Below are positions 2,013-51,943 of a stretch of 64,000 bases of DNA, in pieces. Origin of the DNA: Candidatus Nomurabacteria bacterium (GTDB lineage Bacteria > Patescibacteriota > Patescibacteriia > HK-STAS-PATE-3); NCBI GenBank assembly GCA_023898465.1, contig CP060223.1, positions 480,001 through 544,000 of the forward strand, written 5' to 3'. Made by a program: the position numbers and the translations under genes. The notes under the pieces are model-generated. The model ran no database searches and was not told where the DNA came from. It saw only the letters and a program-made list of their open reading frames with translations. Each line of letters opens with the position of its first letter. Position 1 is the stretch's first letter.

Positions 2013-2020
2013 AAAAACTC

Positions 2021-36573: not shown

Positions 36574-36623
36574 ATTCGCTATTTCGAATATATATACTTC
36601 AGAAAAAACTGTCAAGAAATCCC

Positions 36624-37880
36624 CTATCGAATGTAGACGACCGCGCCTGTGCTAAAGGTGTTTATATCTTTACACGCCTGACCTGGAAAAACCTCAGCCC
36701 GTAATTTACGACTCTCCAGCATCTCTACCATAAAACATCCAGCTGAACTTGTTCCTGAACGCAGCTCCAGAGTGCTGCTCAAACTTGATCTATCCCAAAC
36801 TTGGCCATCAGCGTAATAGACTTGCTCGTAAAGGTCATAGGCTACCCGGCCGTTTTCTGGACTAATATCAACTGGCTTAGCAGCGTCGTGAGCAATAGTG
36901 AACTGTGAAGCGCCATCTGGCCAGTTACCTATTGAAATTACCGTAGCGCTAGGGTCGAGATGATCTGGAGCGATCGCGAGATGGGTAGTCCAATACGCAG
37001 ACGGATCATTGCCCGCATAACCATTTGTGGTCCCATCAGGATTCATCACAAACCAGGTGCCAATTAACCGTCCATCAATATCATAGTCAATCTTGCCGCT
37101 ACGTGGTTCAACTGTACGTAAATACTGGGTCAAAGCTAGGGAGCGAAGTTCTTCAGTGTAGTACGGCAGCGGATCAACAGTATGAATCTTCCACGATTCA
37201 CGCTCATAATGCTCCGGCACCACGAAGCCGCTAAGCTCGCTCTCTGTATCCCAAACAGCAAAATCGAGAGTCTGCCCGCCGATACTCCCTATACGTTGTC
37301 CAGCCTTCACAGGTAAATCAATACTATTCCCCTGCTGCTGATAGGCACTAAGTATATCAGGTGCTAAACCAGTGACTAAATCATAGTAGTAAAATAGATG
37401 ACAACTCATGCTGAATACTATCCGAAAGTCTGTCACGGTCTTGTTCGCATTTTGCCCCTGACCAGAGTGGGTACGCGTCCCTATATCAACAATCCGCGCA
37501 TCGGCCATTGCGTATACTGGATAGGCATCAATAGGTGAATCAAAAGGCTCGGGTGAGAAGTATTGATGATCAATTGGGGTGACGTGCCCACCGATCATTA
37601 ATCCGTATGGGATAATAAATCCAACATCGCTAGGGTCCATGGGATAATCGGTAAGCAAGGGTTTGTCGGTTCCCTGACAATGTCCATGACTTAATTCCTG
37701 ACCAGCTACATCAGCCGGCGTCCTCGCCTGCTCTTGTGTATTGATATTTTCTTCATTTTGCATTGAGGAGTTTTGATTTTGACTAACAGTATTGTCGTTA
37801 TTTCTACGAGTGAATAGCACAATAAGCACTGCCAGAAGAATGAGGACAGCGATGATGACGAGCGTCGCTACTTTTTTCAT
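36624..37880 (-). CDS. membrane-anchored/secreted hypothetical protein
   Basis: N-terminal TM and signal anchor, then a 380-aa extracytoplasmic domain with no confident motif. Confidence 0.45.
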   Translation of the reverse strand: MKKVATLVIIAVLILLAVLIVLFTRRNNDNTVSQNQNSSMQNEENINTQEQARTPADVAGQELSHGHCQGTDKPLLTDYPMDPSDVGFIIPYGLMIGGHVTPIDHQYFSPEPFDSPIDAYPVYAMADARIVDIGTRTHSGQGQNANKTVTDFRIVFSMSCHLFYYYDLVTGLAPDILSAYQQQGNSIDLPVKAGQRIGSIGGQTLDFAVWDTESELSGFVVPEHYERESWKIHTVDPLPYYTEELRSLALTQYLRTVEPRSGKIDYDIDGRLIGTWFVMNPDGTTNGYAGNDPSAYWTTHLAIAPDHLDPSATVISIGNWPDGASQFTIAHDAAKPVDISPENGRVAYDLYEQVYYADGQVWDRSSLSSTLELRSGTSSAGCFMVEMLESRKLRAEVFPGQACKDINTFSTGAVVYIR

Positions 37881-37969
37881 ATGGGTAAGTATAGCATAGA
37901 AAAAATAGCTTACTCAGTATGAGTAGATTTTAATAGGCATTAAAAGGATTTTCGCTGTAAAATATCTCT

Positions 37970-38446
37970 TTACTGCCCTTGCTCGAAATCCTTCAGGATA
38001 CGCAAGTATTTTGCTTGAGTATCACTACCAATTTGTGGATGCGTAAAAACCGGCATTACACCGGTTATTGCTATGATATTTCTTACTTCATCAAAATAGA
38101 ATCCATCCAACGTTGCAATAAAGAGCCAAGAAGGATTCCAAGACTTAGCCATCCGTTTAGCATCTATAAGCACATATTCAGGACTTAGTTGTTTTTGATA
38201 TTTTACCTCTATCAATCTGACTTCGCTTGTTGCATGATCAATGACAGCGAAATCTGGCGCGGTACGTAAAATATTAACTGTTGGATTATCTTGTGAATAA
38301 CCCTGCTGGATAAGCTCAGGGATAATTTTTTCATACCCAAATTCGAGTACTGTAAATTGGCGTGATTCGCGAAACATTTGTGCAAATATCGTTTCAGCAA
38401 TTTTACCTTTAATGAGATTGTGAGTGAATTCTGTTGAGGTAGACAT
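37970..38446 (-). CDS. hypothetical protein with PD-(D/E)xK nuclease-like motif
   Basis: PDFAVIDHATSEVRLIEVKYQK fits the D...E.K core. Confidence 0.4.
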   Translation of the reverse strand: MSTSTEFTHNLIKGKIAETIFAQMFRESRQFTVLEFGYEKIIPELIQQGYSQDNPTVNILRTAPDFAVIDHATSEVRLIEVKYQKQLSPEYVLIDAKRMAKSWNPSWLFIATLDGFYFDEVRNIIAITGVMPVFTHPQIGSDTQAKYLRILKDFEQGQ

Positions 38447-38598
38447 TATTTTTTCTTAATAAACTTTTTCAACTTTACTTGAATGTAGGTTGCCGCAATA
38501 GTAAACAGAAGTATTATTCCAAAAGCAGGAAGAAATACTTTCAGCATTATTCCCATAAACCTACTTGTACCTTCAACAAGCTGAGGATCGGCAGGCAT

Positions 38599-38784
38599 TT
38601 ATCTTGTTTTCTTCTTATAGCAGCTATAACAAAGCGAACGATCGCGGGAAATAACTGTACCACAACTCCGGCACTTTTTCGTGCCATACTTTTTTACACT
38701 CGAAGACTTTTTCTTAGTCTGGCATGAGTAGCACAGTGTATACGTTCCTGTTGTTTTTGTTCCACAGCGGCTGCATTTAGGCAT
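38599..38784 (-). CDS. lysine-rich duplicated zinc-ribbon protein (61 aa)
   Basis: Two copies of CxxCGT-x(6-7)-LCYSC-KKK. The start was set at internal ATG 38784 (MPKCSRCG) because the ORF's 5' part overlaps the small gene at 38790-38966. Confidence 0.4.
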   Translation of the reverse strand: MPKCSRCGTKTTGTYTLCYSCQTKKKSSSVKKYGTKKCRSCGTVISRDRSLCYSCYKKKTR

Positions 38785-38789
38785 ACTTA

Positions 38790-38966
38790 CTACGCCCCCA
38801 AAAACTTCAGCGCCTCGTAGACAAAGAAAACGGGCCAGATAATCGCTTTTAACAAACCGAGTACGCCAATCCAAAATGAAGTCGCTACCGAGATATAGTA
38901 GATAGCGGCACCGATCAGACCGAGACCATAGAAAGCCCCACTACTCCCTGCATTTGCCTTATTCAT
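38790..38966 (-). CDS. small (58 aa) Gly-zipper membrane protein, below the ORF-track cutoff
   Basis: ATG at 38966 preceded by an AAGGAG RBS. Translation is MNKANAGSSGAFYGLGLIGAAIYYISVATSFWIGVLGLLKAIIWPVFFVYEALKFLGA. Confidence 0.4.
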   Translation of the reverse strand: MNKANAGSSGAFYGLGLIGAAIYYISVATSFWIGVLGLLKAIIWPVFFVYEALKFLGA

Positions 38967-39000
38967 ATAACTCCTTAACTAATTATGTTTACAGGACAAA

Positions 39001-39258
39001 TTATACCACTTCGCGACGAACATAAAATAGACAACAAAGGGATACAGTCGCCGGAAACAAATATACCAAATCAAACCACCCTATTTGATCAGTGATAGTC
39101 AAAAAAATATTCAACAACATGAGTAGAGCAAGCATCCAGTAGGCCCACTTCTTTTTCAATCGTAATTGCCAAGTAAGTAAGAAGAGCGCAAAAGCATTTA
39201 CTAACGCAAAGCTAGAATAAAAGAAGCGGTAATCTGAGTCGCGAAATAACCAAAACAA
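39001..39258 (-). CDS. small membrane protein
   Basis: 85 aa with 2-3 TM helices. Confidence 0.35.
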   Translation of the reverse strand: MFWLFRDSDYRFFYSSFALVNAFALFLLTWQLRLKKKWAYWMLALLMLLNIFLTITDQIGWFDLVYLFPATVSLCCLFYVRREVV

Positions 39259-39391
39259 CGCAAAGCATACCCAGAAGGCCGCAATGCTATAGAGTAGTCG
39301 AATGGTAAAAGTGAAATAATTTATAGTCGAAGCATATTATTGATAAGTGGAAAGGAAAAGCCGCCGGTAAAGACCAACGGCTAGATGAAAT

Positions 39392-39877
39392 CTAGGCCGC
39401 TCGTTGCTCAGTCCTCAGGATAGCAGAAGCACGACGATACGCTTTGTCTCGCACCGCCTTTGGTACATCCTGCTCTCTTAAGGCACCTTGAATCGAGCCT
39501 AGCTGCACCTCATTCCCCTTACGATAAAAGGTGAGCACAAAGCCTTCAGCGCCTATTTCCACTCGACCATGTAGACGATCAACCTCCAGCACCTCGGTCT
39601 CTGCATCTTGTTCACCCATATGAGCCTCCTGGTCGGGAAAAAGCTCTTCTTGGATTGGTCGCATGTGTCTTTCACGCATATATATATTGTACGCCTCAAG
39701 CAGGAAAAGTAAAAGTAGTCTTGACGAGCCCAAGGCTCGGGGTTTATTATAGCGACACTTCTCAAGCCGACAGAGAAGTTGTCTCAGAATCCGTTTTGTC
39801 GGCACTCTCGCGTGAATGTTTCGCGGTTCATCGAGAGCGTAGAACGGCGATAGGCTGATGGGACCGATCCCACTCAA
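39392..39877 (-). CDS. hypothetical protein
   Basis: No motif. The real start is possibly internal (MRERHMRPIQ). Confidence 0.3.
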   Translation of the reverse strand: MSGIGPISLSPFYALDEPRNIHARVPTKRILRQLLCRLEKCRYNKPRALGSSRLLLLFLLEAYNIYMRERHMRPIQEELFPDQEAHMGEQDAETEVLEVDRLHGRVEIGAEGFVLTFYRKGNEVQLGSIQGALREQDVPKAVRDKAYRRASAILRTEQRAA

Positions 39878-40034
39878 AAGCCGAAAAAAAACGGGATCCT
39901 GCCCCAGGCATCAATACTTGTCGCCCGAATTCCAATCGGGAAACATAGATGCGCTGGGGCTCCATTTTTTTATAGATACCTAAAAGCCAGGAGCTGCCCT
40001 CTCCTGGCCTTTGAGGCTGAAAGGAGGAATGAGC

Positions 40035-41186
40035 CTAATTATCTATTTCAAAATCCCAGAGTGCTTGTACCTGCGACGCGCTTAGGCCGGTGCGTGTCGC
40101 AATCTCTTGAGCCAAACTTGAGGTGCTGGTATTTGCAGAGGTCCACTCATAGCGCTGTGTATCACCACGGCGGGCTTTAATTTCTGTGCCATCTTCACGT
40201 ACCCGGACTTCTATTTCCCATTGGGCTTCTTCTTCATCGCCGTGATCCTCTGAATCGTTTGAATTACTATTACTGTTATGTGAATTGGTATCATCATTCA
40301 CATTTCCTTCATGAGAGTTGGTTGCATCTACATGCGTATTCTTATTATCATTTCCATGATCATCATTGGTGTCAGAATGGTCATCACTGCTATTGGCATT
40401 TTGCAGATCTACACCATCATACTCAATTTTGATAGCTGCCCGAACTTGGGCTTCGCTTAAGCCTAAACGGTCGGTAACTGCTTTAATAATTTCTTCACGA
40501 TCAGTCGTAGTCAGGGTAAACTCACTGTGCTGATTTGCTACTTCAGCCTGAACAAAGGCTTGTGCACCAGCTACGTGCACTTCAATTTCAATTCGCTGAA
40601 GACTATGACTGTTTTGTGCGTCTTCAATCTCACGCAGTTTTACTTCAACGTTACTTAGCGTCGCTGCAGCATGCTCATTTTCTTTGGCTTCTAATTCATC
40701 GCGCACTTCAGCTACGGTTTGTTGCGCATTTTGCAGAGCGGAATTTACATGATCAGCAGCATCTCGAGCTAGTTGCTCCTTTTGCTCTTGCTCTAACTCA
40801 GCTAGCTCTTTTGCTCGCTCAGCTGCAATCTCAGCCTGGATGCGGAGTCGCGCCTCAGCTGAGGTGGCTAAATTTAAACGGACTTGCTCGACGGCTTGAT
40901 CAATACCAAAGAGCCAATCTCCTGGCTTGGCATTATTCGCTGCGAGGACAGTGCCGGTGCCGCTGCCTAATAACACGATAGCGATAAGGATGCTTGCAAT
41001 CATATTTTTGTGATTAAGGAAAAAACCTGATCGCTGCTTATATCGATCAGCTTCCGGGACTGTTACGCTCGATGCAGCCATACGCAAACGAGCCTCAATA
41101 CGTTCACGGGCAGCCGGAGATAAAGACTGAGAATGAGACATCTTTAACAGCTTGATAATTTCTTTTGATGAAAAATGTTTCGACAT
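40035..41186 (-). CDS. putative anti-sigma factor (single-pass membrane protein with long coiled-coil and a His/Asn/Asp-rich C-terminal region)
   Basis: Immediately downstream of the ECF sigma gene. One TM helix, and the extracytoplasmic segment is rich in AEIAAERAKELAELEQEQKEQLA coiled coil. Confidence 0.5.
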   Translation of the reverse strand: MSKHFSSKEIIKLLKMSHSQSLSPAARERIEARLRMAASSVTVPEADRYKQRSGFFLNHKNMIASILIAIVLLGSGTGTVLAANNAKPGDWLFGIDQAVEQVRLNLATSAEARLRIQAEIAAERAKELAELEQEQKEQLARDAADHVNSALQNAQQTVAEVRDELEAKENEHAAATLSNVEVKLREIEDAQNSHSLQRIEIEVHVAGAQAFVQAEVANQHSEFTLTTTDREEIIKAVTDRLGLSEAQVRAAIKIEYDGVDLQNANSSDDHSDTNDDHGNDNKNTHVDATNSHEGNVNDDTNSHNSNSNSNDSEDHGDEEEAQWEIEVRVREDGTEIKARRGDTQRYEWTSANTSTSSLAQEIATRTGLSASQVQALWDFEIDN

Positions 41187-41190
41187 ATAT

Positions 41191-41736
41191 TTACGAATAA
41201 GAGAGTTGTTCCATTTCCTTGCGTAAGGCTTGCAAAGCCCTATGTTTCAATACGCGCACATTGAGAGCACTGATCTGCATTACTTTTGCCACTTCACTTA
41301 TACTTAGATCCTCTCGATAAAGCATATGGAGCAGAGTTGCGTAGCGTTCAGGAAGGCGGGTTAAGGCTGATTCCATTTCCCGCTCCATTATTACATCTGG
41401 CATCTCATCCGGATCACTTGATAAAGTATGACTCACGCTCTCAATATCAACCTGGGTGCGTTGGCCACGATAATGATCAATCAAGCGGAAACGGGCAATT
41501 TGAAAAAGCCAGGTAGAGAATTTTGCATGTTTCTGCTCCTTATATCGGGGCAATGAGCGAATCATTTCAAGAAAAACAGTTTGGGTTAAATCCTCAGCTG
41601 TTTCCTGACTACTGACCCGCATAAGCAAGAAACGGAACACCCGGTCTCCGAAAAGGTGGAAAAGTTCGGCCACCCCTTCTTGATCCCCTTGTTGCGCTCT
41701 GGCGACGATTTCCTGTACTTGGCTTTCGTGTTGCAT
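41191..41736 (-). CDS. ECF-type RNA polymerase sigma factor (sigma-70 regions 2 and 4)
   Basis: DLTQTVFLEMIRSLPRY...FSTWLFQIARFRLIDHYR region 2 and a C-terminal region-4 HTH. Confidence 0.85.
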   Translation of the reverse strand: MQHESQVQEIVARAQQGDQEGVAELFHLFGDRVFRFLLMRVSSQETAEDLTQTVFLEMIRSLPRYKEQKHAKFSTWLFQIARFRLIDHYRGQRTQVDIESVSHTLSSDPDEMPDVIMEREMESALTRLPERYATLLHMLYREDLSISEVAKVMQISALNVRVLKHRALQALRKEMEQLSYS

Positions 41737-41749
41737 AGCGTATATTAGT

Positions 41750-41777
41750 ATATCGGAAATAGGATTATTTTGTTACA
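41750..41777 (-). promoter_or_regulatory. candidate ECF-type autoregulatory promoter (TGTAAC-N16-CGATAT)
   Basis: The minus strand reads TGTAACaaaataatcctatttcCGATAT just upstream of the sigma-factor ATG, resembling SigW/ECF-type -35/-10 elements. Confidence 0.3.
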
Positions 41778-41798
41778 TCTACCAAGAAATGCTATTAC

Positions 41799-41827
41799 TT
41801 GACATTTTTTCATATCTAGTCTAGTAT
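41799..41827 (+). promoter_or_regulatory. near-consensus sigma70 promoter (TTGACA-17-TAGTAT) firing into an ORF-free region
   Basis: TTGACAttttttcatatctagtcTAGTAT. Confidence 0.45.
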
Positions 41828-41834
41828 ATGCACT

Positions 41835-42191
41835 CGATGTTCATTAGAAATGAGAGAGAGGCGGGATGAGATAGGTGTCCCCCCAGACACCTCGCTACCT
41901 TCATACAGCGGTAGTTGCATCATCCCACTGCCCGAAGCGGCTCCCCACCCTTGTTACTACTTGTACTGGCTTCATCCCTAAGGATCCCCCGCCAGTCTGG
42001 TGCTGACATGTTCGGCGTCATATCCTTATGGTCTATTGGCTGCAAAGCTGATCACCTTTTGTGATGATGACTCACCGATGCTTCGGCTCAGATGCCTCTC
42101 TCTCCACCTACGCCTGCGCACCTGAGCACTCCCCCAGGCTCACTGCGCATGTGCCCCCGTCGTGTCGTTGTACCGACGGGGGTGCTTTTTT
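41835..42191 (+). ncRNA. candidate structured non-coding RNA (about 360 nt) of unknown family
   Basis: No ORF of at least 60 aa in any frame over about 500 nt. It has a defined promoter and an intrinsic terminator. Visible helices include an 11-bp long-range pairing gagagagaggc/gcctctctctc, a GGTGTCcccccaGACACC hairpin and a C(UUCG)G tetraloop. Confidence 0.35.
42153..42191 (+). terminator. rho-independent terminator
   Basis: GCCCCCGTCG-11nt loop-CGACGGGGGT followed by TTTTTT. Confidence 0.6.
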
Positions 42192-42202
42192 ATAAAAAGA
42201 AA

Positions 42203-42226
42203 TCCCCAGGCCGATTGGTCTGGGGA
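42203..42226 (-). terminator. terminator hairpin for the heliorhodopsin operon (bidirectional pair with the previous)
   Basis: TCCCCAGgccgattggtCTGGGGA. On the minus strand it is followed by TTTCTTTTTAT. Confidence 0.4.
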
Positions 42227-42232
42227 TGAGAA

Positions 42233-42736
42233 CTAGAACTGTTGTGCTGAACGCATCCGATGAAGCGTGCTACACACCAGTCCAATACCAGAGCGACGCT
42301 CTACACAGAACTGATACACCCGTTGCGCCGCCATGAGCTTTTCATAGAGCGCCTGACCATGCTTAGTGGCTAGTTCGTTTCGCATCTCCCGGTCTAGACC
42401 TTGGTAATACGAACCAAGCAGCAGATAGCGCACTAGAAGCCACCCCAGTAACCCGGAGCTGAGCAGCATCGCTGTTAAAGCACCGGGCAGAGTCAGATAC
42501 CCGAGCAAATCCTCCAGTCTTGCCCAGTAGTACACTGCAACAAGCTCAAATAGCAGAAACGCTAGCGTGGCTATAGTTGACCCTATCCGGATAAACAGGC
42601 GCCACCTTTTCACTCTCTCGCACAACTCTAGAATCTCTTCTTCTTGAACACTGAGTTGCGCGTAGAGGAAATTCGACATATGCACCTCCCTCTTGCATAC
42701 CCAAAAGCAGTCTACACCCGCTGCACTGCAGGTCAA
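42233..42736 (-). CDS. membrane protein, function unknown (last gene of the heliorhodopsin operon)
   Basis: 2-3 TM helices. A 9-nt gap to the HeR gene. The likely start is at the internal MSNFLYAQL. Confidence 0.45.
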   Translation of the reverse strand: MTCSAAGVDCFWVCKREVHMSNFLYAQLSVQEEEILELCERVKRWRLFIRIGSTIATLAFLLFELVAVYYWARLEDLLGYLTLPGALTAMLLSSGLLGWLLVRYLLLGSYYQGLDREMRNELATKHGQALYEKLMAAQRVYQFCVERRSGIGLVCSTLHRMRSAQQF

Positions 42737-42745
42737 GCATTCAGG

Positions 42746-43528
42746 TTAAGGCCGGAGAGTACCGGAAAACATTTGCCAGGCTAGAGCTGATTTCGCCACC
42801 AGGGACAAAATCATATAGGCCTTTTCACCGTAGAGATAGTCCTGCCATTTCCCTATCTTCTTATACTGCAGGACCATGTTAATCGCGAAGATGTTAAAGG
42901 TGACAAAGATGGTGGCCACAATGAAATAAACAAAGGTAGGAATCTCCACTCCGGTCGACTGTACCGCGCCAATGAAGAAAGCAACAATGACCAGCCAGGG
43001 AATTAAGCCAGCCAAAACTCCTATCCAGTACGAAAGCCAATTCGTATGCTTGGTCGTCTGATTATGTACTTCCATCATCAAGCCCATGAGATTCATAATC
43101 GCATTCAAGGCAAACAGCGAAATGAGTAGCCAAAGATCGTACACACCACAAAGCATGGCAATAACTACAATCATAACTGACGAGGATAAGGCATACTCAG
43201 CCCAACGCAGCTTGTTGATGCCCTTTTTCAAATTCTCCTCATACCATTCCCGCAAAGGTCCGGCTAGAAGGAAATGCGCAAAAGCAGAAAGGAAGAGAAA
43301 GACCGCTACGGTGGGGCCTAAGCGTAAGTCAAACAAATGCTCAGGAAGTGGAGCTACACCAAAAACTGGATTATTTGGATCGATTTTCAGGTATGAAGTA
43401 ACAACTGGTAAAGATGAATTATTGCTTATCAAAACCATAATGACGCCTTGCACGAAGTGAAGGGCGGCCATTGACCAATTCCAGACTTGTAGTTTTTTTA
43501 ACTGCTCTTTTTGACTACGCATTTTCAT
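42746..43528 (-). CDS. heliorhodopsin (inverted-topology microbial rhodopsin)
   Basis: Strong family signatures: RWAEYALSSSVMIVVIAML (TM3 with counterion Glu), YMILSLVAKSALAWQMFSGTL (TM7 with Schiff-base Lys), and conserved His in LHFVQG and AFAHFLLAG. Confidence 0.85.
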   Translation of the reverse strand: MKMRSQKEQLKKLQVWNWSMAALHFVQGVIMVLISNNSSLPVVTSYLKIDPNNPVFGVAPLPEHLFDLRLGPTVAVFLFLSAFAHFLLAGPLREWYEENLKKGINKLRWAEYALSSSVMIVVIAMLCGVYDLWLLISLFALNAIMNLMGLMMEVHNQTTKHTNWLSYWIGVLAGLIPWLVIVAFFIGAVQSTGVEIPTFVYFIVATIFVTFNIFAINMVLQYKKIGKWQDYLYGEKAYMILSLVAKSALAWQMFSGTLRP

Positions 43529-43546
43529 ACCCCCCCCTTTTTTTCT

Positions 43547-43885
43547 TTACTTAAACCGTTTGCCTAGCCACGCGCCAATCCAAACGGCAAAAAGAATAAT
43601 ACCAAAAAGAATAAGTTGCCACAACCATTGTTCGCTTTCACGCCATAGCATTAGTAGCACGAATAGTGCAGCTGGTACTAGCCAAATACCCGTCCACGCT
43701 TTCCAAAGTGATGGAAACGCAAAAGTAAAGCCAGCGCTAAAAAGCAAGTACACTGCAAAAATTATTGCTCCAGCAACTATGTAATCATTTATCCCGGCGC
43801 TATCAGAAAAAAGCACATTCAGGACGAGAAAAAATCCAAAGAGGCAGCTAAGTAGACAGGCAAGGATAATCAAAAACGTACGCAT
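43547..43885 (-). CDS. small polytopic membrane protein (first gene of the heliorhodopsin operon)
   Basis: 112 aa with 3-4 TM helices. An 18-nt gap to the HeR gene. Confidence 0.45.
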   Translation of the reverse strand: MRTFLIILACLLSCLFGFFLVLNVLFSDSAGINDYIVAGAIIFAVYLLFSAGFTFAFPSLWKAWTGIWLVPAALFVLLMLWRESEQWLWQLILFGIILFAVWIGAWLGKRFK

Positions 43886-43925
43886 ATACTAAAGTATATC
43901 ACTTGCCTCGGTCTTTGCGTAGTAC

Positions 43926-45614
43926 TTACTTAGGCTCTGCTACTGGATCTGTAAGCGACGCTCCTGCTGCTGCCATCTCTTCGTGTTCAGCGTCTCTAGG
44001 TAAGAAGAAGGATGCAATGAGGGTGAGTAAGGTAAAAGCAGCTGCGTAATTCATCACATCTTTGTTTGAATCAACGATTGCCTCGTACTGTAGACGGGAT
44101 AACTGCGGCAGCAGTTCAGCTGGGATGTTAGAGGTATCACCCGGTTCAGCGTTACCGAAAGTACGAGCCTGCTCCTCAATCGCTTCAATCAACTGAGGCT
44201 TCATTGCCTCAGGGATATTTACCAAGTCCTGGACGCCTGTTTCAACATGAGAGAGTAAGGAGCTTAAGAGAATCGTCCCAATAATAGCCGTACCAAGTGC
44301 CTGGCCCACAGTACGGAAGGTGGTATTTAAACCTGACGCTTGGCCAGAAAACTGCAGTGGAATAGTGGCTAAAGTAAGATTGGTAATCTGGGACATGATT
44401 AATCCAAAACCAAAGCCATACAAGGCAAGACCGGGAATCAAATCCCATTGACTCATATCAACTGAGAACTCGCTCTTGAGCACAAAAGCACTGATGAAAG
44501 AGATGAGAATGCCGAGCTGAATAATGTAGCGAGCGTGGAAGCGACCAGTGAAACGTGAGAAAAGCCCAGCGGCGATAAACAAGGCGATCGACATCGGCAT
44601 CAATGCTAGGCCCGTATCAAAGGCGCTTAAACCCAAAATAGCCTGTAGTAAAACTGGAATGGTAAAGAAGATGCCAGATTGAGCTAATACGAGAATGGTC
44701 AATGTCACAATGCCAGTGGAAAAAGCTCGATTCTGCAATATCACTGGATTCATAAGGGGCACTAAACCATCTGCACGTTGTGAACGATGTAAGCGTCGCT
44801 GCCAAAAACCAAAAAAGATGAGTATGAGCACGCCAAGGGCTACTGCTATTGGGGTAATGGAAAGGTCAAAAGGATGTATAGCAATATCGCCCATAGAATA
44901 AATCTCTTTTGCCTTCCACCAACCGTACTGACTTGCTTCCAAGAGGCCAAACACCACCGAACCAAGACCAAACGCTGACAGGATGGCGCCTAAATAATCA
45001 AGCTTCTCGCGTGAAGCATCATGCGTGCGTGGATCACGAATATAGCGAGCCAGAGCGAGAATAACTATGACAATAATCACCTCAGTAGCAAAAGCCCAGC
45101 GCCAGCTAAAATGCGTAGTCATATAACCGCCGAATAGTGGTCCAAGTGCTGCAGTCGCGCCAGCGGTGCCGCCCCAGATGCCGAAGGCAATGCGCAAATC
45201 CCTGCCGCGGTAATTCGCCAAAATAAGCGAAACAGTAGCTGGCATCATCAATGCCGCTCCAATGCCCTCAATAATTGACCAGCCTAATATCAACACATTT
45301 ACGTTCGGACTGAGTGCGGCAGTGATAGTGCCGGTCGCATACACCACTACGCCGATAAGGAAAAGCTTTTTGCGGCCATACATATCACCTATTCTGCCAC
45401 CAGTGAGCATAAAGGCTGCCATAACAAGAGAATAGATGGTGATGGCCCACTGCACATTTCGCAAGCTTGTACCGAGATCATGCACAACGTTTCGAATAGA
45501 AACATTAAGCATGGTGGTATCAAAGATGATAATCACCAAAGCAAGGCTAAGTACAACTACTAGGCCCCACTTCTGGAACCAAGCGCGAATAGGATGTGAA
45601 GTATTTGTTTCCAT
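43926..45614 (-). CDS. MFS transporter, DHA2 (EmrB/QacA)-like 14-TM drug:H+ antiporter family
   Basis: 14 predicted TM helices, the MFS motif A region GRIGDMYGRKKLF and an MPATVSLI motif. The start is at ATG 45614. Confidence 0.8.
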   Translation of the reverse strand: METNTSHPIRAWFQKWGLVVVLSLALVIIIFDTTMLNVSIRNVVHDLGTSLRNVQWAITIYSLVMAAFMLTGGRIGDMYGRKKLFLIGVVVYATGTITAALSPNVNVLILGWSIIEGIGAALMMPATVSLILANYRGRDLRIAFGIWGGTAGATAALGPLFGGYMTTHFSWRWAFATEVIIVIVILALARYIRDPRTHDASREKLDYLGAILSAFGLGSVVFGLLEASQYGWWKAKEIYSMGDIAIHPFDLSITPIAVALGVLILIFFGFWQRRLHRSQRADGLVPLMNPVILQNRAFSTGIVTLTILVLAQSGIFFTIPVLLQAILGLSAFDTGLALMPMSIALFIAAGLFSRFTGRFHARYIIQLGILISFISAFVLKSEFSVDMSQWDLIPGLALYGFGFGLIMSQITNLTLATIPLQFSGQASGLNTTFRTVGQALGTAIIGTILLSSLLSHVETGVQDLVNIPEAMKPQLIEAIEEQARTFGNAEPGDTSNIPAELLPQLSRLQYEAIVDSNKDVMNYAAAFTLLTLIASFFLPRDAEHEEMAAAGASLTDPVAEPK

Positions 45615-45715: not shown

Positions 45716-46258
45716 TCATATCTTCCGAGCGTCATAGGCCCAGTGTAGCAGCGCCTGACGTTGCCGACGGCGACAAGCCATATCACGAGGCGCGCAATAC
45801 TTCTTGATTTGACCAACGTGACGACGAATAGCTTTCCAGCGCTTTATTTGACGCTCATCCTCCCTGGGAATACGACGGCCTGAATAATAGCGACAGTACC
45901 ATTGAAACCAACCTCGTGGATCCTCTGGATAAATCCAGCCTTTGCGCTGCCACTCTGCTAAAGATTGACTAGCGTCGACAGCAAAGAAATTGAGGTGGGG
46001 ATTATGGGTGGAGGATAATCGTGCGCCGCGAAACCATGAAGCGGGAAATTCTTTTTGACAATCATTGAGGTACTTACCCCCAAAAACACCTAGTCGCAGC
46101 ATCTGCGCAGGACTTAATTCAGGCGTAAACTCTGGAGCAAAGTTTCGGCCAGGCGCTTCTGTCCGGTAGTATGTGTAGGCCTGCTGAAAGCTATCGTTTA
46201 CTTTAACTTTTTTCTTCATAATCCCCTGTTGAAGCTTGCCGCACCCAGCGCTGCTCAA
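45716..46258 (-). CDS. conserved hypothetical protein (basic, Trp/Tyr/Arg-rich)
   Basis: No confident family assignment. The likely start is at the internal MKKKVKV. Confidence 0.4.
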   Translation of the reverse strand: MSSAGCGKLQQGIMKKKVKVNDSFQQAYTYYRTEAPGRNFAPEFTPELSPAQMLRLGVFGGKYLNDCQKEFPASWFRGARLSSTHNPHLNFFAVDASQSLAEWQRKGWIYPEDPRGWFQWYCRYYSGRRIPREDERQIKRWKAIRRHVGQIKKYCAPRDMACRRRQRQALLHWAYDARKI

Positions 46259-46541
46259 TATAGAGCACTCGCCACCACCATCGCCCTAAGAAATACCCAC
46301 CAATCGCTCCAAGTAGTAACAAGCCAATTTGAATGTATGGTGGAAGCGCACATCCCCAGGTCCAATGTATAACCTGTCCATTTTTCTCAGCCCAGCTTAA
46401 ATACCACTGCTCAATTCCTAAATGTAACAGCAAACTTAACAGCACGCCGAACACAGTAGCGCTAATGAGATAAAGTGCATGTTTGAACGGGGTTGCTTTA
46501 AGTGGTCCGCGATGAAACATATTTAGAAAAGATTTAACCAA
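46203..46541 (-). CDS. small membrane protein
   Basis: 112 aa with 2 TM helices. The 3' end overlaps the next ORF. Confidence 0.3.
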   Translation of the reverse strand: MVKSFLNMFHRGPLKATPFKHALYLISATVFGVLLSLLLHLGIEQWYLSWAEKNGQVIHWTWGCALPPYIQIGLLLLGAIGGYFLGRWWWRVLYIEQRWVRQASTGDYEEKS

Positions 46542-49500
46542 CCAAAGAGGTCTTGCACTGATCCTAGGATTACCTGCACAACTGTTTGTTCTTGCTGTGG
46601 AGTAAGAATAGTCAGAGGCTCAGACACCGAGGTCTGTCCACTGGAATCCGTGCTCTCCACCTTGAACTGATACACCGAACCTGGCTCAAAACTTGTCAAA
46701 ACGACAACGTGCCGTTTCGTATAGTTTGTATCAAGTGGCGTGGCTTCGGTAATTGCTTCATCAGCACTGGCAACACCCTGTCGATAGTACACTCGACTAG
46801 TGGCTGGCTCATTTGTTAGCCAGCTGATGATGGTTTGGACTTTAGTATCACGGCCCGGGGAAAGGGCTGAGTCAGTTTGAATCTGCGAGATAAGCGGAGG
46901 CGCATTCTCATCGCCGGTCACAAAGGAGTCAAGCGTCTTGGAAACCGTATTGCCATCTGCATCAACACTTACCAACTCAATTGCGTAAGTCACTCCAGAC
47001 TCAAAACTATCTACAGTCACCTGATGAATAATGGTTTGCGTATCATCTCGAACACTGCTTAACTCATCGACCGCTTTGATGTTATTGCGATAAGGTATCA
47101 CCCGTACAGTGGCATCTGCATCACGAGTGGTGGTCCAGCGGAATACCGCTTCCTCGCTTGATATTTTTTCGACGGCATAATTTTGAATATCAAAAACCTG
47201 CGGATCAGTAGTGAAACTAAAGTCTGCACTTTGCGTTGTCTGGCTAATCTTTGTTCGACTACGCACTTGGTAATGATAGGTTGTATCAGGCTGTAAGTTG
47301 TAAACCGTAACTGAATGGGTCGTGCTATAGGTTTCCGCATCACCCACCACCTGAGTATACTGTTGTGCCAGAGCAAAGTCAGCATCTGAAGCGTAAGCTA
47401 CCAGGGCATTAGAGTCTTTATCAGTTCTCCATTGGATAGTGACTGAAGTTGGACCAACATCCACGCGAGGCTCTCCACTAATAAGCGGAGTAGGAATTAT
47501 TTTTGATAACTCCTCGATGAGTTGATACTGCTCTTCTAAACTTAGCTCTAAAATATCAATGCTAACATTGCCATAGAGATCATTCAGTAGATCAAGATTT
47601 TCTTCAAGGATATTCTTAATCTCATCAGGATTGTTTCTATCGATTGGTGCAGTGCCAGACGTAGTGAATGTTTTATCGCCGGTAATCGACGTGTTGCCGC
47701 TTGCATCAACGGAAATAACTCGATAATGATAAGTAGACCCACTGTTTAATTGTTGCAGAGTAAGGCTATGACTGGTGGCATAAGTCCAGTCACCATAAAT
47801 AGTTCCGTAAACTGTGGTAAGGCCAAATTGAATAAAGCTATTCGCTTCCTCACTTGTAGTCCAACGCACAGTGGCAGCGCTATCGCTAATGTTTACCACC
47901 TCGATGCCGGTTATGCTTGGATTTGTCTCATCCTTACTACCATCAATAGCATCTTGTTCACGTTGCTCTACATCTGATTCCTCAGACAGCATTTCTAAAG
48001 TGCTAAAGGATTTTTCTGTACTCGTTGTGCTATTACCTGAAGCATCAACTGACGAAACAGTGTAATAGTATGTCGTCTTAGGGCTGAGATTACTTAAGGT
48101 AACTAAATGGGTTAGGTTGAGACTTTCGTCTAAGCTCGTTGTAACCGTATAATTTCCCGAGCTTGTCCCATAACGCAATTGAGATGTTGCTCGCTCGTTA
48201 CTTAGCCAGGTAACTACTGCTCGAGTGTCAATGACCGGATCGGCCTGTATATTTGATAAGACTGGTGGCACTGTATCACTAGTCGTAACAAAGGAGTAAT
48301 ATTCACCACCGTTGTTATCAAAAGCTACGCCTGAGGTTACATAGTAGTAATACAGGGTACCGTTTGTCAGTCCTGATAACTTCACTAAATGATTCATCGT
48401 TGGTGGAGTATCCAGACCAACCTCAATGGCATCACTCATATCTGAATTCACTGAATAGAAGACGTGTGAATCAGACTCTACATCAGTTAACCAGCTTATA
48501 CTCGCTTCAGTATTACTCACCTCTTGCGTACTTACATTAGAAATTGCTGGACCACTTAAGGTTGTTACCGTATATCCATCACCTCCGTCAGAGTCAGTTG
48601 CCGAGTTCCCACCCGGATCCTCTGAACGAACTCTGAAATAGTACGTTGTCGAGGGATCGAGTCCGGTAAGTATGACTCGGTGAACACCAACACCTGCTTC
48701 ATTATCCATCAGAGTTGCAACACCGATAGTCGTACCAAAATCAGCTGGGGTATCTGAATATCCAATAGTAGAATCAGAGAGCTCATCTGTCTCCCAGGTA
48801 ATAGTGACCGTCTGAGTACCTATCTGACTGGTTGCTACATTTGAAATAGTTGGAGGCGTACTATCAGTACCTCCTTGTCCGTTGGCAGACTCTGAGACAA
48901 CCGCCGAGTAGTAAGAAAAATTTCCATCGCTATCTTCGCTTGATATCTTATACCAATAGCTTGTATCTGCTGTAACACTTTGATCGAGATAATAGTTAAT
49001 TGCTCTATCGCTTATGTGGCTAATCGTACTATAGCTCGTGCCGTCTGTTGAACGATACACCGTGTATTCGCTAAAGCCTGGGTCGGGCAGTGCTACTGCC
49101 TTCCAAGAAATAAAGAGTTGATAGGCATCAGCTTCTACATTACTAATATCACGAATAATCACTGTTGTTGGTGTTTCTGGTGTTACCGCTGATGCACTAC
49201 TGCTGGTATTTTTGTACGCATCACGGAAACGGACATAGACTGTATCTGGATCAGTAACCAAGGAAATAGTTGAGGAAGAGGCATAGCTTACCCACGTCGC
49301 GCCAACAAAGTCACTCCGCAAAGATACTTGCATTTCAAGGCTGCTATCATCAGAGCCGGAGAGATCGAGAGAAGCGGGGTCAGTACGTGCGTCCACCACA
49401 ATTGCCGGACTACCGAGGACTGGGTCTTTTACATCAAGAGTAAAGGCGCTTGTTTCATCGCTGGCTGTATTATTTGCTAATTCCCCATCATCAATAGTGA

Positions 49501-51943
49501 CTCTAATTAAGGTAGTGGTGCTATAGGTCCCATCGATTTGGGCTTTTGCGTTCCAGCTTGCACTATATTCAGTGTAATTAGTTTCATCGATGTCTTTAGG
49601 ATCGGTTGCCCCGGATGATAGCCCTGTGGTCACGTTAAACCAATCAAGGCCATTATTTAACGAATATTCAAAACTCGGGGTCACCTGTCCTGAGCCAGAG
49701 CTGCCATCTGGGTCACGAACTGAGTAAGTGATAAGCACGCTACCATCACTGCTTTGCTGGGTAGCTGTTGGTGCGCCCTCAAACTCAGGCGGTGCATTTA
49801 CCACATACACCATAGTTGCATCATACAGTGTTGGCGCCGCATAACCGTTTGAAGACTCTAGCCATACCTTATACTGCATCCACTGATCATTCGTACTATC
49901 GGTATGAGTGCTATTCACCGTCTCTCCGCCACTTGGATCAGTATAATAATCCCCTGTGCCGCTAGGACCAAGCCAGCTTGACCAAGTACCAGGAGATCCT
50001 GAGCTATCTGGAGCGGTCCGAATCTGAAATTTGATTTCAGTACCACTCGGTAGATTTTCTGTCCAGCGCATACCCCCCAGCGCATTTAATGCATCGGTGC
50101 TATCAAAAGCAGATGAGGTCAGTGTTTGTGATGATGGGTATTGTTGATAACCGATGCTAATGTCTTCAAAGTGCGGCGAAGCACTAGTATCACTCGTCGA
50201 CATACTCACTCGATATTGAATGTATTGCTCACCATCCGTGACGCAAGCGTCAGAACTAATATCATTCCCGCTCGTTAAATTACCGCATCCGGACCAATCA
50301 GGTGCTCCACTCATGCCTGAATCATTTGAGGTACGAGCCTGAACAGTTAAAGTGGTGCTTCCTGGAACGGTAGCATTCCAACTTAAGGTATCAAAAACAG
50401 TGTTTCCGTTTGTATTAAGTGCCGCTGAGGTGAAAGTGCCCGGTGTAAGATAGGTTGAAGGAATATTAATGGCTAATCCGCTTGCACCATCAGCCATATA
50501 GCTAGTGGTGCCTGATTGCAACACATGTTTTCCGAGCGCGGTAAGTGCGGTGCTGCTCACTTCTGATGGAGAGGTTGGATTGCTCACATCAAGCACTTTT
50601 AAGCTTGCGTCATCAATAATGTACAAGTCTGTGCCTACCGCCTCTACTGAACGCACATCAGTCAAACCTGTACTATAAGCCCCTATGCGAACCGGGACAG
50701 ATGGATTACTAATATCAATAATAGTGACACCAACCGAGGAGTCTGCGGTATATGCGTAGCTACCTACTATAGCTACATCATATCCTTCATCAAAGGCTTC
50801 AAAATCATACGAATATCCTCGTACACCGCTAATAGAACCCGGGGTTCCAATATTGTATATGTTTAAACTCGCAGCCTCTCCGTAATCATCGTACCCAACC
50901 CCATATAAGTAATCACCATCAGCAACCAGGCGATACGGTCTTGCTTGATATGAAACGTTTGACGCACTGAGACTTGGGTTTACCGGATCCGCCAAAGACA
51001 ACACATAAATGCGCATCACACGACAAAAACCTGAACAACCTCCTACTGCAAAACCGGCATACAAATATGATCCACGAAGGTATACGCTGTACACCTCTCC
51101 CGTGCTTGTATATTGCCCTACTAAGCTCGGCGCATTTTTGTTGCTAATATCCACTACACGAACATCACCGGTATAGTCAGCAAGATACGCATAGTTGCCT
51201 GAAACGGTAACGTCTCGCGCGTCGTTTGTGTCGACACTACCAAGGGGCTGAGGTGATAAAGGATTCGAAATATCAAAAATTTTCAAACCATCAACGCCAT
51301 CGGCAATATAGGCATAATTACCGTCGACAAAAACTCCTTTTGCGTCAGTGGTGTCGGAATAGGCAGTGCCACCACTTGATTGGGCCAACTCAACATAGGC
51401 CCCACTTCCCGATCCCGTGACTTGAGTGCTACTCGTGGTACCTGTACCAAAATCAGCATCACTCGTTTGCACGAGAGACTGCGACGTGGTAGTTAAGCTT
51501 AGTTCCGTGCCAATGTTAAGGTTTGCATCAGCTGCTGAGTACTCATTCCAACCTGTCTGATCACCTGGATGCTGAGCAGTATTTGCAGTTTGACCACCGC
51601 TCCAGTCTGTCTGCACCCAATAATAAGTGGCCGCTCGAGAGGAACCAATAGTGAGAGCCCAAAATGTCACGCTAATGAGTAAAACAGACGAAATAATTGC
51701 TCCTGCGTAACGTCGAGAACTTTTAAAAGGCTTTATTACCTTTTGCGCTACCTTTTTATTACGTTTTAAGGAAATGGCAAGTACCCATCCAAAATATAAT
51801 GGGATAAACGCGGTATAAGGACGCTGCTTCTTGCGTTTCGCGCGAAGAAGCGTTGTTTTTTTCTGTAAGCTGGCTGATAAAGAAAATATTCCGAAACCAG
51901 CTCTTTTTGGGGGGCTTTTTTTCGCCGACCTTTTTTTGGTCAC
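46523..51943 (-). CDS. giant (about 1800 aa) membrane-anchored surface protein with LVIVD beta-propeller repeats and multiple fibronectin-III-like domains
   Basis: N-terminal signal anchor, and repeats of the YAYIADGVDGLKIFDISNP / VRVVDISN / VTIIDISNP type (LVIVD family). Many units of about 90 aa follow (VTITWETD..., ASISWLTD..., AVVTWLSN..., ATVRWTTS...) typical of FN3 or purple-acid-phosphatase-N-like domains. The extreme N-terminus (poly-K from A/C homopolymers) may not be translated. Confidence 0.75.
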   Translation of the reverse strand: MTKKRSAKKSPPKRAGFGIFSLSASLQKKTTLLRAKRKKQRPYTAFIPLYFGWVLAISLKRNKKVAQKVIKPFKSSRRYAGAIISSVLLISVTFWALTIGSSRAATYYWVQTDWSGGQTANTAQHPGDQTGWNEYSAADANLNIGTELSLTTTSQSLVQTSDADFGTGTTSSTQVTGSGSGAYVELAQSSGGTAYSDTTDAKGVFVDGNYAYIADGVDGLKIFDISNPLSPQPLGSVDTNDARDVTVSGNYAYLADYTGDVRVVDISNKNAPSLVGQYTSTGEVYSVYLRGSYLYAGFAVGGCSGFCRVMRIYVLSLADPVNPSLSASNVSYQARPYRLVADGDYLYGVGYDDYGEAASLNIYNIGTPGSISGVRGYSYDFEAFDEGYDVAIVGSYAYTADSSVGVTIIDISNPSVPVRIGAYSTGLTDVRSVEAVGTDLYIIDDASLKVLDVSNPTSPSEVSSTALTALGKHVLQSGTTSYMADGASGLAINIPSTYLTPGTFTSAALNTNGNTVFDTLSWNATVPGSTTLTVQARTSNDSGMSGAPDWSGCGNLTSGNDISSDACVTDGEQYIQYRVSMSTSDTSASPHFEDISIGYQQYPSSQTLTSSAFDSTDALNALGGMRWTENLPSGTEIKFQIRTAPDSSGSPGTWSSWLGPSGTGDYYTDPSGGETVNSTHTDSTNDQWMQYKVWLESSNGYAAPTLYDATMVYVVNAPPEFEGAPTATQQSSDGSVLITYSVRDPDGSSGSGQVTPSFEYSLNNGLDWFNVTTGLSSGATDPKDIDETNYTEYSASWNAKAQIDGTYSTTTLIRVTIDDGELANNTASDETSAFTLDVKDPVLGSPAIVVDARTDPASLDLSGSDDSSLEMQVSLRSDFVGATWVSYASSSTISLVTDPDTVYVRFRDAYKNTSSSASAVTPETPTTVIIRDISNVEADAYQLFISWKAVALPDPGFSEYTVYRSTDGTSYSTISHISDRAINYYLDQSVTADTSYWYKISSEDSDGNFSYYSAVVSESANGQGGTDSTPPTISNVATSQIGTQTVTITWETDELSDSTIGYSDTPADFGTTIGVATLMDNEAGVGVHRVILTGLDPSTTYYFRVRSEDPGGNSATDSDGGDGYTVTTLSGPAISNVSTQEVSNTEASISWLTDVESDSHVFYSVNSDMSDAIEVGLDTPPTMNHLVKLSGLTNGTLYYYYVTSGVAFDNNGGEYYSFVTTSDTVPPVLSNIQADPVIDTRAVVTWLSNERATSQLRYGTSSGNYTVTTSLDESLNLTHLVTLSNLSPKTTYYYTVSSVDASGNSTTSTEKSFSTLEMLSEESDVEQREQDAIDGSKDETNPSITGIEVVNISDSAATVRWTTSEEANSFIQFGLTTVYGTIYGDWTYATSHSLTLQQLNSGSTYHYRVISVDASGNTSITGDKTFTTSGTAPIDRNNPDEIKNILEENLDLLNDLYGNVSIDILELSLEEQYQLIEELSKIIPTPLISGEPRVDVGPTSVTIQWRTDKDSNALVAYASDADFALAQQYTQVVGDAETYSTTHSVTVYNLQPDTTYHYQVRSRTKISQTTQSADFSFTTDPQVFDIQNYAVEKISSEEAVFRWTTTRDADATVRVIPYRNNIKAVDELSSVRDDTQTIIHQVTVDSFESGVTYAIELVSVDADGNTVSKTLDSFVTGDENAPPLISQIQTDSALSPGRDTKVQTIISWLTNEPATSRVYYRQGVASADEAITEATPLDTNYTKRHVVVLTSFEPGSVYQFKVESTDSSGQTSVSEPLTILTPQQEQTVVQVILGSVQDLFGWLNLF

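Follow-up and report, generated by a model that had tools for sequence, protein, structure and literature searches.

Heliorhodopsin gene and its putative transcription unit

The DNA under study, here called the window, is a 64-kb stretch from the ~1.08-Mb genome of a Patescibacteria bacterium (Parcubacteria group, 'Candidatus Nomurabacteria'). Its minus strand encodes, in reading order, a small membrane protein (p105), a soluble protein (p167), an MFS transporter, a second small membrane protein (p112), a heliorhodopsin (HeR), and a third small membrane protein (p148), followed by an intrinsic terminator, a structured intergenic gap, and genes for an ECF sigma factor and a putative anti-sigma factor.

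Profile searches upheld the initial annotation of the 260-aa open reading frame (ORF) at 42746-43528 (minus strand) as HeR, a membrane protein that senses light. The ORF matched Pfam PF18761 (Heliorhodopsin) over profile positions 1-242 of 242 with an E value of 2.1e-98 and 329 bits (cutoff, 26.7 bits), and the NCBIfam HeR equivalog NF038020 with 340.9 bits (cutoff, 100 bits). Full-length alignments were obtained with TaHeR from a Thermoplasmatales archaeon (PDB 6IS6, 7CLJ, and 7U55; E 8.9e-79, end to end, for the 6IS6 crystal structure) and with HeR 48C12 (6SU3; E 3e-57). E111 occupies the counterion position of TM3 within the motif RWAEY, which aligns with RWFEY of TaHeR, while the TM7 Schiff-base motif SLVAK contributes S242 and K246, again aligned with their TaHeR counterpart. 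The conserved histidine pair corresponds to H24 and H85. The window protein thus has in common with TaHeR and 48C12 the counterion glutamate (RW-x-EY), the SxxxK motif, both histidines, and an identical TM7 segment, LSLVAKSALAWQ; it differs from TaHeR in small insertions within the TM1-TM2 extracellular loop and at residues 185-195, and in its host, a Patescibacteria bacterium. By sequence, then, it carries every hallmark of a retinal-binding heliorhodopsin. It is not new, being already annotated in GenBank as 'heliorhodopsin HeR' of a Candidatus Nomurabacteria metagenome-assembled genome (USN54032.1), and its nearest named relatives, from Kerfeldbacteria, are 75-76% identical.

The ORF of p112 (43547..43885, minus strand) ends 18 nt before the first ATG of HeR. 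A G-rich ribosome-binding site lies 7 nt before ATG 43522, and for this reason M3 is the more likely start of HeR, giving 258 aa and a 24-nt gap to p112; the Logan gene call is likewise 258 aa. Five basic residues in the N-terminal segment MKMRSQKEQLKKLQ are, on a reading of the sequence, compatible with an N-in orientation under the positive-inside rule. The 112-aa p112 contains four hydrophobic segments, predicted to span the membrane, with a charge distribution compatible with N-in/C-in topology. It lacks a Shine-Dalgarno sequence, and an extended -10-like element, TGaTATACT, was read at 43893..43901 (minus strand), 7 nt before its ATG. It could serve as the promoter of a transcript that spans p112, HeR, and p148 and whose first gene is leaderless.

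Downstream of HeR, the longest version of the p148 ORF begins at TTG 42736, encodes 167 aa, and leaves a 9-nt gap. ATG 42679 is preceded by the ribosome-binding site GGGAGGTG and is most likely the true start, yielding a protein of 148 aa (42233..42679, minus strand) and a gap of 66 nt; both the GenBank and the Logan calls are 148 aa. Of the flanks originally described, the 112 aa and, for the first HeR ATG, the 18-nt spacing were therefore borne out, and the 167 aa and 9-nt spacing were most likely overestimates of gene length and proximity. p148 is predicted to have two TM helices with cytoplasmic helical segments at its N and C termini, the cytoplasmic tail comprising only ~60 aa. A single-sequence AF2 model was all-helical with a pLDDT of 55, too low for a fold search.

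Together, p112, HeR, and p148 form a tight same-strand unit closed by an intrinsic terminator at 42192..42227 (minus strand), in which a 10-bp stem is followed by UUUCUUUUUAU; the hairpin at 42202-42227 with its U-run has a dG of -16.4 and a z score of -3.76. A second terminator, found by terminator scan at 42151..42193 on the plus strand, consists of a ~14-bp stem and UUUUUUAU (hairpin 42151-42185 plus UUUUUU; dG -24.8, z -3.09). The unit had been described as ending in a bidirectional terminator; the minus-strand terminator holds, but the single bidirectional element is replaced by two separate convergent hairpins. No plus-strand protein gene converges on the second of these, which probably ends a candidate plus-strand RNA.

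This RNA is suggested by the 496-nt gap at 41737-42232, between p148 and the sigma factor gene, which from its sequence looks like a structured non-coding RNA of ~350 nt (41799..42193, plus strand). A promoter scan placed a TTGACA-17-TAGTAT site with 10/12 matches at 41799-41827, and the candidate folds with an MFE of -140.5 and a z score of -5.8. In the closest relative, L082, the position of the candidate is kept and its sequence partly so; the conserved parts include the two promoter hexamers and each half of the long-range helix. Rfam returned no match to the gap at its gathering threshold and no credible one at E<=10, and ARAGORN found no tmRNA. In nhmmer searches, neither the single sequence nor a two-sequence profile found copies outside the same organism and L082; a weak match in L067 (E 0.07) fell inside a 281-aa ORF and was dismissed as spurious.

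Conservation of the genes flanking heliorhodopsin

The flanking small genes had been proposed as conserved partners that might point to HeR function. Neither p112 nor p148 was detected by tblastn or four-round jackhmmer in 169 other HeR loci (L001-L083 and L086-L171), including 14 whose HeR is 70-85% identical, and each matched only itself among 5.8 billion proteins. In L082, whose HeR is 85% identical, the outer synteny is kept and p112, p148, and the MFS gene are all missing. The gene-neighborhood comparison specified beforehand thus found the flanks not syntenic with HeR in related genomes, and the proposal that they are conserved partners is not supported. Neither protein could be assigned to a family in Pfam, NCBIfam, or PHROG, even at E<=10. 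Across 158 loci, a same-strand gene of <=200 aa with >=2 TM segments occurred within 120 nt upstream of HeR in 4 and downstream in 7, and on both sides only in the window. We therefore regard p112 and p148, as judged from sequence searches, as orphans confined to this organism. Missing homologues do not prove p112 and p148 functionally irrelevant; short membrane proteins diverge fast.

Two identities were considered for the flanks and rejected. A match of p112 to the small heterodimeric lycopene cyclase family (PF18916, Lycopene_cyc) had an E value of 1.8, which is noise, and the PxEE motif is absent; hhalign gave probabilities of 0.5% and 0.2%, respectively, for p112 and p148 being diverged copies of the p105 family.

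It is unlikely that p112, p148, or both are dedicated membrane partners (a transducer or a regulated subunit) in a lineage-specific HeR photosensory complex. The three genes lie on one strand with short gaps (24 and 66 nt) and one terminator, a linkage that hints faintly at a shared role. The ribosome-binding site of p148 is strong, and the cytoplasmic helical domain predicted for this protein could face the intracellular loops of HeR. Small membrane families, DUF2177 and DUF2238, are within the ten published groups of frequent HeR neighbors (PMC11109279). However, no homologue of either protein was found anywhere searched, even in the 14 loci with the most similar HeR proteins, and Pfam scans of p112, p148, and p105 revealed no DUF2177 or DUF2238 at E<=10, just as Pfam and NCBIfam revealed no HAMP or methyl-accepting (MCP) signaling domain in the three proteins at that threshold. 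HeR itself is not unusual, being so close to that of a relative that lacks both genes.

That p112, p148, or both are chance ORFs in spacer DNA rather than real genes is rather improbable. The lack of homologues, the missing Shine-Dalgarno sequence of p112, and the low-confidence model of p148 would be expected of such ORFs, but the two genes occupy their intergenic space without any rival ORF, were predicted by independent gene callers, and encode hydrophobic segments of regular TM length that follow the positive-inside rule. The strong ribosome-binding site of p148 also argues for a real gene, as does its comparison with strain L085, where three of four changes are synonymous and one is non-synonymous; the same pattern could be read in favor of a dedicated partner. 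The near-identical strains differ at only 11 positions in ~8.5 kb, none of them in p112, and are uninformative for selection on either gene. Existing only here, p112 and p148 cannot guide functional work, and that the compact operon reveals no conserved partner is a useful negative outcome.

The gene upstream of p112 was correctly described as an MFS transporter. It occupies 43926..45614 on the minus strand (562 aa from ATG 45614; the ORF reaches 45677), matches PF07690 (MFS_1), and falls within the DHA2/EmrB efflux subfamily (TIGR00711; 237 bits, cutoff 230 bits). Light modulation of this pump by HeR, on the model of OcHeR and its multidrug ABC exporter OmrDE, would fit its position two genes upstream on the same strand and the published precedent of a HeR that up-regulates an operon-linked drug exporter (PMC11109279). 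Even so, we consider it very unlikely: an MFS homologue lies near HeR in none of the other loci compared, so that the adjacency is limited to this organism; the ten recurrent neighbor groups do not include MFS transporters; and the gene has a promoter-like site of its own (TCGACA-17-TATACT). The hexamer TATACT recurs as the -10 element in the promoter-like sites ahead of both the MFS and the sigma factor genes.

An older neighborhood around heliorhodopsin

Beyond the MFS gene, p105 (46203..46520, minus strand) encodes a 2-TM protein, with a 112-aa ORF from TTG 46541, and its last 17 nt overlap the start of p167. p167 (45716..46219, minus strand; 180-aa ORF from TTG 46258) is a soluble member of an uncharacterized family, and its structure model, with a pLDDT of 96.8, matched no PDB fold. 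On the other side of the unit lie the ECF sigma factor gene (41191..41736, minus strand; Pfam and NCBIfam) and a gene for a single-pass DUF5667 protein, a putative anti-sigma factor (40035..41186, minus strand; Pfam DUF5667, E 6e-13).

L082 carries, in order, p105, p167, HeR, a structured gap, the ECF sigma factor, and the anti-sigma factor, and 4 nt separate p167 from HeR. It follows from this order that the MFS pump with p112, and p148, are lineage-specific gains in an older neighborhood or else losses from it. In L166 (HeR 74% identical), HeR is followed directly by an ArsR-YHS/CopA/DsbD cluster, which in the window is found at 32830-36615.

The p105 family lies within 3 kb of HeR, on its strand, in eight other loci (L082, L086, L081, L002, L151, L029, L038, and L050). 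In all, it is present in 9 of 134 distinct HeR clusters, counted without regard to kinship, in which the HeR lineages are only 51-56% identical to each other. p167 neighbors HeR in four other loci (L082, L011, L061, and L002); with kinship again ignored, its family is present in 5 of the 134 clusters and directly adjacent in 3, in differing arrangements, being immediately downstream of HeR on the same strand in L011 and on the opposite strand in L061. Since neither p105 nor p167 has a Pfam model, domain-based neighborhood surveys would have missed both.

From these distributions, p105 and p167 appear to be better partner candidates than the immediate flanks. It is possible, if doubtful, that p105 and p167 (novel fold) are conserved partners forming an ancestral HeR-linked module of non-Saccharibacteria and some Saccharibacteria/WWE3 CPR, split from HeR in the window by insertion of the MFS gene and p112. 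The compact p105-p167-HeR order of L082, the direct adjacency of the p167 and HeR genes in L011 and L061, and the recurrence of p105 beside such divergent HeR lineages all speak for the module; by our estimate, chance alone would place a random single-copy gene of a 1-Mb genome no more than 6 kb from another gene in ~1.2% of cases. Against it, 10 of the 14 loci in the window's HeR subclade have neither family (12 of 14 lack p167), and both are missing from most Saccharibacteria loci. Within that subclade, only one subgroup carries p105; members of its sister subgroup have MscL, DUF1648, and a 293-aa protein in common instead. The p167 family, with 2236 representative clusters, is clearly not HeR-specific, and its fusions to unrelated domains (DUF5872, AAA_33, and STAND NTPase) suggest a general role. 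The recurrence counts, drawn from HeR loci only, also ignore phylogenetic non-independence, and the recurrence could in part be residual synteny. Also possible, but doubtful, is the related view that p105 and p167 are genuine HeR-linked partners in an ancestral p105-p167-HeR module of Patescibacteria and that, separately, the orphans p112 and p148 arose recently as accessory subunits of this one HeR.

The recurrence of these two unannotated families beside HeR in divergent Patescibacteria is a modest lead from the 171 related loci. If the association holds genome-wide, p105 and p167 would offer a cloneable pair for tests of light-dependent binding, at a time when only three bacterial HeR partners are known.

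The sigma factor genes raise a further possibility, that HeR feeds the ECF sigma/DUF5667 anti-sigma pair and thereby a light-responsive envelope or oxidative-stress regulon. Both genes also follow HeR in L082, where the sigma factor is 76% identical and the DUF5667 protein 67% identical (tblastn); more distant ECF sigma factors are encoded near HeR in L108 (~120 nt downstream) and L169 (~2.8 kb upstream), and oxidative-stress responses have been linked to HeR (PMC8612252). Yet the association is seen in only four loci, the sigma gene forms a transcription unit of its own behind two terminators and the 496-nt gap, and HeR action on an anti-sigma factor is without experimental precedent, which makes this reading quite improbable.

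Retinal supply and mode of action

Pfam scans of 51 ORFs in the window (64 kb of the ~1.08-Mb genome) detected no SQS_PSY, Amino_oxidase, lycopene cyclase, BCD/Blh, or RPE65 family, in agreement with the earlier statement that crtB, crtI, crtY, and blh are not visible there; carotenoid genes may lie in the rest of the genome. Retinal scavenging, also proposed at the outset, is a reasonable inference and the published expectation for Patescibacteria and HeR carriers: in the rhodopsin-bearing CPR (Saccharibacteria) genomes examined, blh is absent and external retinal is taken up (PMC9296517).

The description of HeR function as generally unresolved is outdated. Regulatory binding has been reported for AbHeR with glutamine synthetase, TfHeR with photolyase, and OcHeR with the OmrDE ABC exporter (PMC9529153, PMC9769723, PMC11109279). 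The window resembles these operons in that HeR is predicted to be co-transcribed with its neighbors and has a drug-efflux-type transporter nearby, but its neighbors are orphan small membrane proteins and an MFS rather than an ABC pump. A likeness to SRII-HtrII may also be drawn, in that a 2-TM protein is encoded beside a photosensory rhodopsin, p148 and p105 having two TM segments each; unlike HtrII, these neighbors lack a HAMP or methyl-accepting signaling domain, the heliorhodopsin family has an inverted topology, and the window neighbor is not conserved.

Taken together, the locus probably encodes an ordinary heliorhodopsin with orphan flanks, which would rely on scavenged retinal and modulate a partner in response to light. 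The cell would make no retinal and would obtain all-trans-retinal from its surroundings or a host. Light would isomerize the bound retinal, and a long-lived photointermediate would alter the cytoplasmic face of HeR, which in that state may modulate a bound partner instead of transporting ions, by analogy with the three characterized bacterial cases.

Heliorhodopsins of Patescibacteria have been published before, as has their dependence on external retinal, and the finding matters little as first proposed. SLVAK is the commonest motif of CPR heliorhodopsins (Chiriac et al. 2022, PMC9166423), and HeR gene context is variable (Bulzu et al. 2021, PMC8612252). The window protein shares with the published CPR examples (PMC9166423, PMC8612252) this motif, a monoderm-type host, the lack of a retinal pathway, and a variable neighborhood with stress-related and regulatory genes. 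Such a variable neighborhood is in keeping with the published view that HeR is a promiscuous light switch. The published CPR heliorhodopsins are mostly from Saccharimonadia, whereas the one described here is labeled Nomurabacteria, of the Parcubacteria group.

Heliorhodopsin and its three-gene unit

The 260-aa open reading frame (ORF) at window positions 42746-43528 (minus strand) had been called a heliorhodopsin (HeR) in the initial annotation, and profiles, alignments and the residues quoted there all agree. Pfam PF18761 covers 242/242 profile positions (E 2.1e-98), the NCBIfam HeR equivalog model reaches 340.9 bits (cutoff 100), and alignments to 48C12 (E 3e-57) and to 6IS6, a Thermoplasmatales heliorhodopsin of known crystal structure (E 8.9e-79), run over the full length. 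Residues E111 (RWAEY), S242 and K246 (SLVAK), H24 and H85 were all found. An identical protein, GenBank USN54032.1, is named "heliorhodopsin HeR [Candidatus Nomurabacteria bacterium]" and lies on a 1,082,586-bp contig, a record that places the host in the Parcubacteria group of Patescibacteria. The window protein is a canonical heliorhodopsin within a tight three-gene unit.

All three ORFs proposed for this unit were recovered on the minus strand: p112 (43547-43885, 112 aa), HeR, and a downstream ORF whose longest form, with a TTG start, spans 42233-42736 (167 aa). Because GGGAGGTG precedes the ATG at 42679 and the gene is 148 aa in GenBank and in Logan calls, we take the downstream gene to be p148, which corrects its length from 167 to 148 aa and its spacing from HeR from 9 to 66 nt. 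For HeR itself the third codon (43522) is the most likely start; it leaves a 24-nt gap and is correctly spaced from a G-rich ribosome-binding site. An extended −10-like TGaTATACT lies 7 nt before the p112 ATG, and its TATACT hexamer is also the −10 of promoter-like sites preceding the sigma gene and the MFS gene, a DHA2/EmrB-type efflux pump that probably starts at 45614. These sequence features make it plausible that p112, HeR and p148 share a transcript whose first gene is leaderless. The unit is closed by a minus-strand intrinsic terminator at 42192-42227 (dG −16.4, z −3.8). The "bidirectional terminator" described previously consists of this hairpin and a separate, facing plus-strand terminator hairpin at 42151-42193 (dG −24.8).

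Pfam scans of 51 ORFs in the 64-kb window detected no member of the phytoene synthase, phytoene desaturase, lycopene cyclase, Blh or RPE65 families, bearing out the reported absence of a retinal pathway there. This agrees with published work in which rhodopsin-bearing CPR (Saccharibacteria) genomes lack blh and can load external retinal, and in which heliorhodopsin binds retinal rapidly via a lateral opening (PMC9296517). Both the identification as heliorhodopsin and the inference that retinal is scavenged hold, though neither is new; CPR heliorhodopsins have been catalogued before, with SLVAK as their commonest motif (PMC9166423).

Conservation of the flanking genes

The small membrane proteins p112 and p148 had been put forward as conserved HeR partners, a proposal refuted by the searches conducted here. 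Each matched only itself among 5.8 billion proteins, and neither matched Pfam, NCBIfam or PHROG models, even at E<=10. We collected 171 heliorhodopsin loci: 80 from species-representative genomes, 80 from metagenomes and 11 by exact look-up of the closest homologues. Two of these belong to the window's own organism (L084 and L085, ~99.9% nucleotide identity); in the other 169, which include 14 independent loci with HeR 70-85% identical to the window's, neither gene was found (tblastn at E<=1, or E<=0.1 for the last six; four-round jackhmmer). A small multi-TM gene directly beside HeR is uncommon (upstream in 4 and downstream in 7 of 158 loci), and the window alone has such genes flanking HeR on either side.

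Judged by gene order, the closest relative, L082 (HeR 85% identical), is decisive on flank conservation. Its locus reads p105 (58% identity), p167 (76%), HeR, a ~460-nt gap, ECF sigma (76%) and anti-sigma (67%), with HeR starting 4 nt after p167; the MFS gene, p112 and p148 are all missing. Absence from related loci, L082 included, argues that p112 and p148 are lineage-specific additions, and they are uninformative on heliorhodopsin function in general. Both nevertheless look like real genes: no ORF competes with either, both carry regular TM segments that follow the positive-inside rule, and p148 has a strong ribosome-binding site and strain differences that are synonymous in 3 of 4 cases. 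A single-sequence model of p148 was all-helical at low confidence (pLDDT 55).

In L166 (HeR 74% identical), a cluster of an ArsR-YHS regulator, copper P-type ATPase (CopA) and DsbD_2-cupredoxin (1202-4849) directly follows HeR. The window's copy (32830-36615, minus strand) lies 6 kb further on, so the intervening 36624-41736, which holds sigma, anti-sigma and several small ORFs, appears to have been inserted or rearranged.

Recurrent neighbours and candidate partners

Further upstream, p105 (46203-46520, minus strand; 2 TM segments) has an end that overlaps the start of the soluble p167 (45716-46219, minus strand) by 17 nt. Members of the p105 family are encoded on the same strand as HeR, at most 3 kb away, in L082 (429-719), L086 (27-398), L081 (8778-9095), L002 (2978-3304), L151 (690-995), L029 (5177-5494), L038 (4514-4807) and L050 (5148-5396). 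With the window, this makes 9 of 134 distinct HeR clusters, from HeR lineages only 51-56% identical mutually; the family is a recurrent same-strand HeR neighbour in divergent Patescibacteria. Its members have ~100 aa, 2 TM segments and an invariant W, C and several G, and no family model exists. Comparison by hhalign ruled out p112 and p148 as diverged copies of this family. p167 recurs in L082, L002, L011 and L061, directly adjoining HeR in three of the four in three different arrangements. It has no sequence match in Pfam, NCBIfam, PHROG or PDB, and its family is large (2236 representative clusters at E<=1e-3), with DUF5872, AAA_33 or STAND NTPase domains fused to some members.

Within the window's HeR subclade, p105 is limited to one subgroup. 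The sister subgroup (L001, L002, L087, L088 and L169; HeR 71-75% identical to the window's) instead shares MscL, a DUF1648/SdpI-like 4-TM protein and a 293-aa protein, along with PspC-domain proteins, so that the recurrence of p105 and p167 is probably in part residual synteny. On these sequence comparisons, a true functional link of either to HeR is tentative and rather unlikely. MsrA is present in L002, L081 and L169; together with the neighbourhood of the sister subgroup, these are envelope and oxidative-stress genes, in line with the published HeR stress hypothesis. The gene upstream of p105 encodes a predicted giant surface protein (46523-51943, minus strand; 1806 aa) with LVIVD repeats and many fn3 or purple-acid-phosphatase-N-like domains; its end overlaps the p105 start by 4 nt, so its transcript may also carry p105 and p167.

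By analogy with characterised heliorhodopsins, all-trans-retinal would be acquired externally and isomerised by light, and a long-lived intermediate would alter the cytoplasmic face, HeR thereby modulating a protein bound to it instead of transporting ions. Glutamine synthetase (PMC9529153), photolyase (PMC9769723) and the OmrDE ABC exporter (PMC11109279) have been reported as such partners. For the window, candidates rank from p105/p167 as likeliest through p112/p148 and the MFS pump to the ECF sigma/anti-sigma pair. The MFS pump is suggested by analogy with OmrDE, and adjoins HeR in no other collected locus; the sigma/anti-sigma pair adjoins HeR in L082 and L108 and is nearby in L169. Ten groups of recurrent HeR neighbours have been published, including the membrane families DUF2177 and DUF2238, and none flanks the window HeR. 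Such a changeable gene neighbourhood is in keeping with the published idea of "photosensory promiscuity" (PMC8612252). Remaining interest lies in the p105/p167 lead and in a candidate RNA.

Candidate structured RNA and other loci

A candidate structured non-coding RNA of ~350 nt (41799-42193, plus strand) lies in the strongly structured 496 nt (41737-42232) that separate p148 from the sigma gene. It has a sigma70-like promoter-like site, TTGACA-17-TAGTAT (41799-41827, plus strand), and ends in its own plus-strand intrinsic terminator, which explains one of the two halves of the "bidirectional terminator". Plus-strand 41830-42200 folds with an MFE of −140.5 (z −5.8), and Rfam gave no match at E<=10. 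The L082 counterpart (2176-2465, locus minus strand) keeps the position, both promoter hexamers and both halves of the long-range GAGAGAGG/CCTCTCTC helix, with double changes in 14 of 37 consensus pairs between these two sequences only. The comparison is suggestive of a conserved structured RNA in this gap.

Two further genes were noted. In L171 (HeR 75% identical), a CarH/LitR-like regulator (3431-4288, minus strand; HTH_17, B12-binding_2 and B12-binding) lies 1.7 kb upstream of HeR, a second, B12-based light sensor beside it. In the window, a 780-aa protein (18239-20581, minus strand) amid hypothetical genes resembles a TrwB/TraG-like type IV secretion coupling protein and may be what is left, in a reduced genome, of a system for conjugation or DNA uptake.
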